Source of the DNA: a virus
Lineage: Duplodnaviria > Heunggongvirae > Uroviricota > Caudoviricetes
Virus record (IMG/VR): IMGVR_UViG_2695420521_000003
Reading direction: 5' to 3' (one strand)
DNA: 13,810 nucleotides
Of this stretch, positions 6,001 to 9,000 are shown piece after piece. Numbering within the stretch: the first letter of the stretch is position 1; every line of letters begins with the position of its first letter. Made by a program: the position numbers.

Positions 6001-9000
6001 CAACAATATTAGGCGACGCCTAATATTGTTGTCAATAGGCTATGCCTAACAACCAAGAGGTAGGGATTGCCTAATGCAATGCACATAGGAGACTATTAAG
6101 CAATGCTTAGTGGTAAAGACTTAGGCCGAGCGATAGAGCAGGCCATTAATAAAAAAATTGCATCAGGAGCCGTCAAATCAAAGGCGGAGATCGCACGCCA
6201 TTTCAAAGTCCAACCACCATCAATCCATGACTGGATTAAGAAAGGTTCGATAAGTAAAGATAAACTTCCAGAACTATGGCGTTTCTTTTCTGATGTGGTT
6301 GGTCCAGAGCATTGGGGGCTTAACGAATACCCCATACCAACCCCTTCCTGCTCAGATTCAAAAAGAGAACTTTTAGACATAAACAGCCTTTATCAAGCCG
6401 CTTCTGATGAAAAAAGAGCAATTGTAGCCTTCCTCTTATCTGGAAATGCTGCGGAGCCTGGTTGGGTTGATTATGACGTTCGCGCCTACATTACTGCAAT
6501 GGAAATGAAGGTAAGTAACTATCTGAAAAATCAAGAATCAGAACGGAAAAGCCAGAACATCACCAAAACGGGAACTTAAACTTATATGGCCCGACGGGAA
6601 GCACCTAGATCCCGTTATTTAGCTCCCATTACCTCTTCCACATACCATCGCCTATTAGGTTGTGCGCAAAAGTATTAGGCATAGCCTATTGACAAGTAAT
6701 TAGGCATTACCTATAGTTTTCTCATACCAACCCACCCCGCCCCACAGAATGCAGGGCAATACTTCGAGTTACCAGGCAGTGGCCAGGGGTTAAGTAGCCA
6801 GCCCGAGGCGTAAGAACATGACGGCAGGGTTCAACTTTAATAACTATGCAGCAGGTTTTTGTTCCGCTACCCCGGCGTTAAGGGGAAATGAGGTCAACAT
6901 GGATACTATCGATCTTGGCAACAACGAATCTCTGGTGTACGGCGTGTTTCCCAACCAGGACGGCACGTTCACCGCGATGACGTATACCAAAAGCAAAACG
7001 TTTAAAACCGAAAATGGTGCCCGTCGCTGGCTGGAAAGAAACTCAGGTGAGTGATATGGATTTCGACACAATCATGGAAAAGGCTTACGAAGAATACTTC
7101 GAAGGCCTTGCCGAAGGCGAAGAAGCTCTCAGCTTCAGTGAGTTTAAACAGGCGCTTTCCAGCTCGGCAAAATCTAACGGCTGATAAGCGAAGCAGCACC
7201 GCGAGGAATCAGTATGCAGAAACGAGAACCCGTCATCATCGCGCCAGGCTATACCGATGATGAAATTTACGAATGGATGTGCGGGAAGGTACGCGCCATT
7301 AATGACCTGAAGCAGGCTGCTGACTATAAAGAGCGCCTCTCTAAAGAACTGGCGTCAGCGGAGCAGGATATTACCACTCTTGCAAAAAGCGCGGCATTAA
7401 ACGTTTCACGAGTGATTGAAAACTACTGACTGATGAGGCTGATGATGGAATTTAAAGATTTACCAATGCCATTCCAGGAAATGGCAGCGAATATAGTTCG
7501 CTCCCAACTGGCGACTCTTGACCTGAGTACTGTAGAAAAGGAAACCATCGATACTATATCCGGTAACGTGCGTCGTGCCTTTATAGGTCTGTATGAAGAG
7601 AAGCGCCCATTCGGCGGACAGAATTCGCCTGAAAACAAGAATCAAGCAAATGATGAGAAGCTGAAACACATTATCGCCTTACTTTTGGAAGACGCAAAAC
7701 GTCTACAGCAACTGGAACCAAATGCAGGCACAGAGGCCCGCATTTGGATTGCCATGAAATCACTCAAATGTGAAAGCAGTGATTATTTCAAAACCACAAT
7801 TAAAACTACTCAGCTTTCGGAAGAACTACTGAATAAATTGCCACAATAATATATTTTCTTATAGAGTGGTTAAAAATATGGGTCAGCATTATAGCTGACC
7901 CGAATAACAGAGAATATTTTAAATATTAGCTCGTAACTTGTGATTGTTCTTTAATAAATTCATACAAGCGCACAAGTTCTTTCAACTCTTCAAAGCACAT
8001 AGCGGAATTTTCAATTTTTCCAGCTTTGATTAGTGCCAAAAGAGCCTGATGTGCACAAGCATATGGATCAGTTACAGGGCTAATAATATCAACTTGCATC
8101 TTATCCTCCATTGAGGTTCTGGGTTAAAGATGGAGACCAACACGCGGCAACGTGTGGTCGTGCGCCGGACACGGATAAGAATCCGGCACTGACAGTTTAC
8201 TGAAAGAATATATCCCTGCAAAGTCAGGGCATAACGCGAAAGCGCACGGCGAGGCTGTTAGTTCATAAATGGTCTGTCGTTAAATTTTCGTCGACCGTGC
8301 GCTTCCGGTTGTGGCAATCCGCGAAATGGCGCGGCGGTAAGTATGGCGGGGTTATTCCTTCCCCGTTGAGGACACCGGGTTGTCAGGTTGACCATACGCT
8401 TAAGTGATAACCCCGCTGCAACGCCCTCTGTTATCAATTTTCTGGTGACGTTTGGCGGTATCAGTTTTACTCCGTGACTGCTCTGCCGCCCTTTTTAAAG
8501 TGAATTTTGTGATGTGGTGAATGCGGCTGAGCGCACGCGGAACAGTTAAAACCGAAAACAGTGTTATGGGTGGATTCTCTGTATCCGGCGTTAATTGTTA
8601 ACTGGTTAACGTCACCTGGAGGCACCAGGCACCGCATCAACAAAGTTCATTTGTAAAAATGGAGATAATTATGATTGCTCATCACTTCGGAACTGATGAG
8701 ATTCCTCGTCAGTGCGTGACCCCCGGTGATTATGTTATTCATAAAGGAAGAACATATATTGCTTCGGTAAACAACATTAAAAAACAACGGCTCTATATTC
8801 GTGATTTTTCCACACAACACTGTATTAAGGAAACCATGATTAAAGTCTTCCTTGGTCGTGATGGTTTACCTGTAAAAGCAGAGTCATGGTGAGCAGTAAT
8901 AAAATAACTGCCACAATACGACATTCAGCTTAATGAATACATCAGATTTGATTCTTATATGCCAGCAATGGCAGGGATTTGTTCATCCTTAAATCTGTCA

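Follow-up and report, generated by a model that had tools for sequence, protein, structure and literature searches.

An antisense gene cassette and the DicF precursor leader in the early-left region of a Rac/Qin-type prophage

We analysed a 13,810-nt stretch of viral DNA (IMG/VR record IMGVR_UViG_2695420521_000003, Caudoviricetes; 'the window' below means this whole stretch), whose plus strand reads as the early-left region of a lambdoid prophage of the Rac/Qin type. Just 5' of the DicF small RNA (8440-8491, plus strand; Rfam RF00039, 76.7 bits, gathering score 48), an initial annotation had placed a minus-strand mini-gene and, beside it, ~330 bp free of open reading frames (ORFs), and had taken the two together for an inserted cargo module. 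The reading that we hold, with some reserve, to be the probable one is that two adjacent and independent modules meet here. One is a moron, i.e. an independent accessory transcription unit inserted between phage genes (PMC3594210), which carries a gene for a rare 57-residue protein in a slot of the sieB type; the other is the leader of the DicF precursor, which is already known. The part worth following is the hypervariability of the slot, where unrelated genes share one leader. The two halves differ sharply in distribution: by megablast, the cassette (7850-8111) was found in 48 of 5426 complete E. coli genomes, whereas the neighbouring 8112-8437 was found in 4318 of them, usually in several copies, indicating that they are separate modules.

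The antisense cassette and its product

The cassette runs on the minus strand from 7850 to ~8096/8158, with a leader that reaches to ~8190, is AT-rich, and has its own Shine-Dalgarno (SD) sequence and terminator. Its G+C content is 0.29-0.33 over 7825-8050, as against 0.43-0.56 on both flanks. The ORF scan returned the minus-strand ORF of 57 codons that had been described at 7926-8099 (MQVDIISPVTDPYACAHQALLALIKAGKIENSAMCFEELKELVRLYEFIKEQSQVTS; ATG start at 8097-8099), and an alternative upstream ATG at 8111 would give a version of 61 residues. The near-perfect SD sequence claimed for it is also there, GGAGGA at 8104-8109, slightly off the coordinates first implied; it lies within the start context ATGGAGGATAA(G/A)ATG, 4 nt from the ATG (5 nt if counted from the GGAGG core). 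The dedicated terminator was likewise called by the terminator scan (7872-7901, minus strand). It consists of a G+C-rich hairpin of 8 bp (7880-7901; GGGTCAGC-TATAAT-GCTGACCC; -15.5 kcal/mol), followed on the minus strand by the T-tract ATATTTTT (7879-7872), and is the clearest terminator among the 11 cargo alleles examined. No T-run lies 3' of the hairpin on the plus strand, so read-through of the operon towards dicF would not be blocked.

A 57-codon ORF in AT-rich DNA means little by itself. We therefore rely on its homologues, which are few. The NCBI Prokaryotic Genome Annotation Pipeline calls them hypothetical proteins (WP_249940326 and WP_001376375), and a word-indexed protein search found seven clusters, none from outside E. 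coli and none less than 88% identical. When 1.84 billion representative proteins were searched exhaustively with HMMER, four hits resulted, of which one, P0008 (60 residues, 55% identity), is a convincing distant relative; a 348-residue repeat protein (P0009) and a protein of 4147 residues (P0010) from the same search were judged spurious. A scan of 185,579 species genomes returned no relative. P0008 is encoded on a distant metagenomic contig (L130) with the same layout, its ORF being antisense to a block that contains a match to the Salmonella small-RNA family STnc100, and having on its 5' side the hairpin called hairpin 1 below, a CTCCAT/ATGGAG pairing and the SD sequence GGAGGA. Between the window and this homologue, the proportion of nonsynonymous differences (pN) is 0.265 and that of synonymous differences (pS) 0.80, i.e. 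synonymous sites are saturated while pN stays low, which argues that the reading frame has been kept by selection. Judged from these sequence comparisons, the 57-codon ORF is a real protein gene, and a rare one.

Several observations weigh against a functional gene in a moron. About half of the copies of the ORF are inactivated. Of seven chromosomal copies in E. coli, a -1 frameshift at codon 10 is shared by three, and a nonsense mutation at codon 18 is found in one; the site has no annotated coding sequence in 18 of the 40 genomes listed; and of 15 IMG/VR loci, eight are broken, seven by a truncated allele (in five of these, the -1 frameshift itself was read from the sequence) and one by a nonsense mutation, the other seven being intact. 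Close intact alleles differ with a dN/dS of ~0.7, calculated from roughly 10 changes. The protein, in addition, belongs to no Pfam family at E <= 1, has no match in NCBIfam and none among the defence families of PADLOC, and a Foldseek search of its model against the viral models of BFVD gave nothing with E below 2.9.

It is possible, then, that the ORF is a decaying relic, a cargo gene that was once functional, is now neutral in E. coli and not meaningfully expressed, and is intact in the window by chance. The two independent lesions, frameshift and nonsense, in about half of the copies, the high dN/dS between close alleles, and the extreme rarity of the protein both among 1.84 billion sequences and across the species genomes would all fit such a history. 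The low pN over the long distance to L130, however, indicates purifying selection; the SD sequence, start context and terminator are intact in the window and in three of the other loci (L001, L002 and L127); and, taken over all loci, the slot holds many kinds of ORF that are intact, also in sequenced phage genomes. We thus regard the relic as an unlikely explanation, though one that deserves some weight.

The product is acidic and hydrophilic, and has no hydrophobic segment. Its one match in PHROGs is weak (phrog_17494, E = 6e-4) and leads to a family of unknown function. AlphaFold2, run on the single sequence, predicts a two-helix hairpin (helices 14-25 and 32-55; mean predicted local distance difference test score 71.6). 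We considered whether the protein could be a PPR/TPR-like repeat protein, as a profile search of the PDB hit designer PPR proteins. These matches were sums of weak repeats, none of the stretches passed alone, and Pfam found no such repeat; we treat them as a generic resemblance between helical hairpins. There was no match to SieB in Pfam, nor in NCBIfam, and as far as sequence goes the protein is not a SieB homologue. A role in defence or superinfection exclusion is possible by analogy of position, as sieB occupies the same slot in Rac. Taken alone, the 57-residue protein is an orphan without a functional lead.

Exchange of cargo on a shared leader

The cassette turned out to be one of many occupants of its site. 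About 120 redundant IMG/VR contigs with the DicF pattern were fetched, together with phage records, and the 650-nt stretches that border the conserved DicF block on its left were clustered. About half of the loci have an arrangement like that of K-12, with plus-strand genes of the ydfB/ydfC type. The other half have a minus-strand ORF, which belongs to one of ~14 unrelated kinds, is between 57 and ~200 codons long and has 35-41% G+C. The slot lies between a cluster of DUF1391-type genes and the DicF block, and an antisense ORF is found in it in sequenced phage genomes as well (Evi). Most of the cargo alleles fall into PHROG families of unknown function, and nine alleles other than the window's gave no PADLOC match better than E = 0.005. 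Two of the cargo ORFs (L096 and L098; 94 and 101 residues, both phrog_8894) are related to each other, and the first of them is at the threshold of the Pfam family of the GhoS endoribonuclease antitoxin (21.2 versus 21 bits); no GhoT-like partner was seen. In the literature searched, the slot is not described as a hotspot, nor are its shared leader and hypervariability.

The edges of the exchange are well defined. Loci such as L018, L042 and L051 keep the window's 138-residue gene on the left and the dicF block (from 8159) on the right, and have a different minus-strand ORF between them; loci of the L018 type share 7420-7846 (96%) and 8159-8651 with the window, the intervening ORF being different. 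Most informative is the right-hand junction within the leader segment that we call type A (8097-8159, minus strand), which holds the start codon, the SD sequence, a helix over the start codon and a second hairpin (hairpin 2, 8135-8159). Six ORFs (those of the window, L004, L013, L096, L097 and L098) start in the identical context ATGGAGGATAA(A/G)ATG, and type-A homology to the window stops at 8095-8097, i.e. at the start codon; over the 60 nt that lead up to the ATG the ungapped identity amounts to 0.65, and over the following 60 nt to 0.30. A second group (L016, L018 and L019) has a different, type-B leader with the SD sequence GGAGGG, and K-12 keeps a remnant of the type-B leader without an ORF. 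Since different cargo ORFs sit on one leader, SD sequence and start codon, recombination in the conserved leader appears to swap ORF bodies. Cassette and block, moreover, recombine independently, as identity to the window's DicF block is only 79-82% in loci that carry the 57-codon cassette (L125-L129), whereas it is 95-96% in loci with unrelated cargo.

Comparison with relatives thus divides the initial annotation's inserted cargo module in two. From 7850 to ~8100 the term is apt, because this part is replaced between conserved flanks in relatives, is low in G+C and has its own SD sequence and terminator. It does not apply to the ~330 bp free of ORFs, which belong to the conserved leader of the DicF precursor.

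The minus-strand leader has a recurrent predicted architecture. Hairpin 1 (GCCGGA...TCCGGC, 8164-8187, present on both strands) is conserved in type-A and type-B leaders and in that of L130, and its columns are nearly invariant in an alignment of 52 sequences (A1). Read on the minus strand, it would form the stem-loop at the 5' terminus of the cargo mRNA; read on the plus strand, it is part of the leader of the DicF precursor. In the minimum-energy folds of all ten leaders tested, hairpin 1 (CCGGA...TCCGG) at the 5' end is followed by a type-specific hairpin 2 and by a third helix that pairs the SD/start region; in the window this helix, CATCTT (8127-8132) with AAGATG (8097-8102), covers the start codon. 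The minus-strand leader fold has a z-score of -3.9. The pair CATCTT/AAGATG of the window corresponds to CATTTT/AAAATG in other type-A alleles, a compensatory change for which L001 provides the U·G intermediate. Two points count against a leader structure that serves the cargo gene. The L002-type allele breaks up the helix over the start codon, so that the compensatory change is suggestive only. The leader hairpins are, furthermore, equally present in the plus-strand RNA, so their conservation is not assignable to one strand and could be due entirely to the DicF precursor.

A putative sigma-70 promoter for the cassette lies on the minus strand at 8194-8222, with TTTGCA (8217-8222) as -35 element, a 17-nt spacer and TAAACT (8194-8199) as -10 element. 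Across 52 variants, among them L002 with its replaced flanks, the -10 element shows little or no change. It also counts against the moron, however, that this candidate matches the consensus at 8 of 12 positions, falls below the threshold of the promoter scan and was not called by it. Another minus-strand candidate (8601-8574) was rejected because its -10 element falls in a variable island. In most type-A alleles, UCCAUUUUU stands directly 3' of hairpin 2. Hairpin 2 as an attenuator or terminator 5' of the cargo was rejected too, the scan not calling it in the window or in L004.

These features bear on whether the ORF could be the toxin or antitoxin of a small addiction module, e.g. a type I system whose toxin is not a membrane protein, as with RalR/RalA of Rac. 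In favour of this, a small ORF with a structured 5' leader, which would sequester its start, is fully overlapped here by a transcript of the opposite strand; frequent inactivation is what one expects of a costly gene; and the score of the L096 allele is on the GhoS threshold. The protein, however, lacks any hydrophobic or membrane segment, which also makes a membrane-type toxin unlikely. No toxin-antitoxin family was matched in Pfam, NCBIfam or PADLOC, and neither a partner gene nor a dedicated antisense small-RNA gene was found. A type I toxin, in particular, is not what the acidic and hydrophilic character of the protein points to, and Rfam places no antitoxin RNA at the locus, the sok match of the window being 7 kb off. 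The many unrelated ORFs of the slot favour general cargo over one toxin-antitoxin design. We consider an addiction module very improbable.

The DicF precursor leader

The stretch between the cassette and DicF is as it was first described in all but its novelty. No frame of 8112-8437 has an ORF of 60 codons or more, the longest being of 59 (8258-8437, minus strand, TTG start) and 49 codons; with a G+C content of 0.48-0.56 it is not AT-rich; and the local hairpins noted at 8164-8187 and 8214-8229 are both in the minimum-energy fold. It is not, however, undescribed. From position 8159 the window is ~93% identical to the ydfC-dicF region of K-12: the homology starts directly after ydfC and continues through dicF, and 8159-8437 is 92.8% identical to the ydfC-dicF intergenic region of K-12 derivatives. 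By this homology, the ORF-free stretch is the known long untranslated leader of a dicBF-type operon and not cargo, and we annotate 8159-8439 (plus strand) as the 5' leader of the DicF precursor. This segment within the dicBF operon is described as a long untranslated region (PMC10448788, PMC5069750, PMC9438474). According to Ragunathan et al. (PMC10448788), who confirm Faubladier et al. 1990, the 53-nt DicF owes its 5' end to RNase E, and RNase III generates two further ends, the 5' one of a 190-nt species and the 3' one of a 72-nt DicF species. The same work found no evidence for a further promoter inside the dicBF operon (PMC10448788).

The RNA of 8100-8660 is predicted to be more stable than 100 of 100 shuffled sequences (z = -3.1), and two of its predicted helices stand out. 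The first is a long hairpin with a perfect 10-bp core (8240-8249/8295-8304), and the second a long-range helix of ~21 bp (8499-8519/8630-8651), which is also present in the consensus fold (columns 357-377/509-530). From the published RNA lengths we calculate, by arithmetic and not by mapping in this element, that RNase III would cut near 8303 and 8511. Both helices cover these expected positions, which are ~137 nt 5' and ~72 nt 3' of the DicF 5' end, respectively.

The second helix belongs to the 3' part of the conserved DicF block (8492-8651, plus strand), which stops just before the ribosome-binding site of kil. Its right edge is at 8651 in nearly all of the ~120 loci, and the ribosome-binding site that comes next is that of kil or dicB; this constant edge is explained by the helix, which ends where the homology ends. 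On the left, the recurrent break points are at 8095-8097, 8159, 8170, 8214 and 8230. Variation among 52 homologues is concentrated in replaced islands (~8254-8276, 8354-8374 and 8567-8600), and the indels in them (1-4 nt) are not multiples of three, which excludes a conserved ORF. The structural reading finds little backing in covariation, as RNAalifold, given 52 non-identical copies, returned a covariation term of -1.22, a single double change being seen among 118 pairs. With pairs that hardly vary the test is uninformative, and we make no covariation-based claim of structure.

Rfam, searched at a permissive threshold over 7800-8700, gave only DicF and a sub-threshold match to STnc100 at 8493-8678 (plus strand; 37.4 bits versus a gathering score of 47), in the spacer between DicF and kil. 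On contig L130, the STnc100 match (58.5 bits) is preceded by a tRNA-Gly(tcc) (L130:614-689, minus strand) which takes the place of DicF between it and the leader. The same spacer in the window contains an island of ~50 nt (8585-8635, plus strand; CCGGCGTTAATTGTTAACTGGTTAACGTCACCTGGAGGCACCAGGCAC) that is almost invariant in the 52 copies, two columns varying and three sequences in all differing. It contains GTTAAC palindromes and a CCTGG/CCAGG hairpin, and could be a protein-binding site or a structure controlling translation of kil or dicB. DicF itself varies between blocks. In L125-L129 (e.g. L127:1806-2289) the internal stem-loop is replaced by GGCGGAAATGGATATCCGCC, giving a 'mini-DicF'; L001 (4310-4801) and Rac of K-12 have another variant of the hairpin, GGCGGCATCAGTTTTTTTCTTGAAGTTCGGCTGATGTCCGCC; and L148 (4600-4700) is also among the blocks with DicF variants.

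The folds described above bear on another reading, in which the minus-strand unit is an RNA device and its ORFs are passengers. It would modulate read-through or processing of early-left RNA, and so the output of DicF and Kil, either by convergent transcription or through a cis-antisense leader RNA consisting of hairpin 1, hairpin 2 and a U-rich tail. That the leader is conserved across unrelated cargo ORFs and persists in K-12 as a remnant without one would agree with this, as would the z-score of the minus-strand leader, the UCCAUUUUU after hairpin 2 in most type-A alleles, and the published dependence of DicF processing on RNase III (PMC10448788). The intramolecular helices predicted for the plus strand, however, would already account for both RNase III cuts, and hairpin 2 was not called as a terminator. 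Strong SD sequences lie exactly at the break of homology, at least one cargo ORF (that of 57 codons) is under selection at the protein level, and the antisense transcript is undocumented. An RNA device with passenger ORFs is thus, in our view, improbable.

Expression, setting and comparison with known systems

Under our preferred reading of two modules, the antisense orientation of the cassette relative to the early operon suits it to expression in the lysogen. There, the early-left promoter would be repressed, and a weak promoter that lies within the conserved block (TAAACT as -10 element, 8194-8199) would drive transcription of the cassette, with a start near 8187, at the foot of hairpin 1. 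Translation would begin from the strong SD sequence, possibly once the helix that sequesters the start codon opens, and transcription would end at the cassette's own terminator. After induction, convergent early-left transcription across the cassette would silence the gene. The small, acidic, helical protein most likely would bind a host or phage protein to the benefit of the lysogen; as to its function, our best guess is superinfection exclusion or host modulation. On the plus strand, the long helices of the DicF precursor would be the substrates of the published RNase III cuts, and the junction AUCAA|UUUUCUGG would be where RNase E cuts to give DicF its 5' end.

The orientation bears equally on the suggestion that the ORF encodes an anti-defence or host-takeover factor of early lytic growth. 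Such a role would suit a small acidic helical protein encoded in the early region, from which phages express many inhibitors of host proteins, next to DicF and Kil, both of which target FtsZ. The gene, however, is oriented against the early-left operon and ends in a terminator of its own, so that early transcription would collide with it and not express it, and searches of Pfam, PHROGs and structures revealed no similarity to any known anti-defence protein. We consider such a factor, the anti-defence role raised in the initial annotation included, most unlikely.

A more ambitious interpretation would give the slot a general meaning. In it, the left end of the DicF block, read on the minus strand, would be a universal expression platform (promoter, stem-loop, start-sequestering helix and SD sequence) and at the same time a recombination anchor for a hypervariable family of small proteins made in the lysogen; the sieB-equivalent slot beside dicF in Rac/Qin-type prophages would be an unrecognised accessory or defence hotspot with at least ~14 cargo types, almost none of them of known function; and the 57-residue protein would be a new exclusion or host-modulating factor, coupled by antisense overlap to the production of DicF and Kil. 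We put this forward as a tentative possibility, one that we think would rather fail than hold. The ORF-free stretch being already explained, the antisense gene matters mainly as one allele of the slot. If the slot proteins act in the lysogen, the slot would be a compact and easily mined source of small exclusion or host-modulating proteins in E. coli prophages, including those of Shiga toxin-producing strains, and the antisense overlap with the DicF precursor could tie the expression of slot genes to the prophage's cell-division inhibitors.

The surroundings of the two modules agree with the order annotated in related E. coli loci, which is repressor, DUF1391, a hypothetical gene, an antisense hypothetical gene, dicB or kil, and exonuclease. 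In the window, kil (8659-8892, plus strand; phrog_294; NCBIfam 'FtsZ inhibitor protein', 139.7 bits) is followed by an exonuclease-sized ORF and then by the integrase-side end. It is kil that stands 3' of DicF here, versus dicB in Qin, and two FtsZ-directed inhibitors of different kinds thus adjoin each other; among the loci, the conserved DicF block is joined to dicB or to kil at one shared break point, 8651. The 138-residue gene upstream of the cassette (7433-7849, plus strand) is a mosaic, its residues 5-61 and 73-122 matching different PHROG families (e.g. phrog_6937 versus phrog_30817 and phrog_12693). Related loci share one half of it only (7420-7488, 7420-7604 or 7664-7747), indicating recombination inside the gene. 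Farther away, a full-length match to the sok antitoxin RNA (778-927, minus strand; Rfam RF01794, 103.9 bits, gathering score 59) implies a type I toxin-antitoxin locus of the hok/sok type in the same prophage. At the other end of the window there is a tRNA-Ser (12833-12919 by Rfam; tRNA-Ser(cga), 12830-12919, minus strand, by ARAGORN). It adjoins an ORF (12974-13810, plus strand) which runs off the end and which, by analogy with related loci, is on the integrase side; this is probably the prophage attachment site.

The closest known counterpart of the leader is that of Qin. It shares with the ydfC-dicF leader an identity of ~93%, the position directly 5' of a canonical DicF, and predicted helices where the published RNase III cuts would fall (PMC10448788). 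It differs in that its upstream neighbour is the antisense cassette and not ydfB/ydfC, that it extends 47-63 nt farther to the left (8096-8158, with the type-A segment absent from K-12), and that the downstream gene is kil and not dicB.

The counterpart of the cassette in position is sieB of Rac and other lambdoid phages. Rac of K-12 has the order racR, an unnamed hypothetical gene, ydaF (on the early-left strand), sieB (on the opposite strand) and kilR. In K-12, ydaF is on the minus, sieB on the plus and kilR on the minus strand, and in the window the DUF1391-type cluster is on the plus strand, the 57-codon ORF on the minus strand, and DicF and kil on the plus strand. In both, therefore, a gene antisense to the early-left operon occupies the slot between a DUF1391/YdaF-type gene and kil, and both follow the logic of a gene suited to expression from a repressed prophage. 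On the 5' side of Rac sieB there is a DicF-variant hairpin and then a leader unlike that of the window. The proteins, in contrast, have no sequence similarity, SieB having ~160-190 residues with membrane segments, as opposed to 57 residues without any.

Defence hotspots of temperate phages and satellites, e.g. those of P2 and P4, have a fixed site, conserved flanks and alternating unrelated cargo. The slot resembles them in its fixed position and conserved flanks, between which unrelated small cargo alternates among relatives, but differs from them in that its ~14 cargo types include no known PADLOC defence family and in that its cargo is very small (57 to ~200 residues).

With phage morons (PMC3594210), finally, the cassette shares the AT-richness relative to its flanks, the SD sequence and terminator of its own, the polymorphism of presence and replacement among homologous prophages, and an orientation fit for expression from the prophage. 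It departs from them in that its promoter is a candidate only and that many unrelated ORFs are fused to one leader, SD sequence and start codon. In this respect, the slot behaves like an expression platform and not like a set of fully self-contained insertions.

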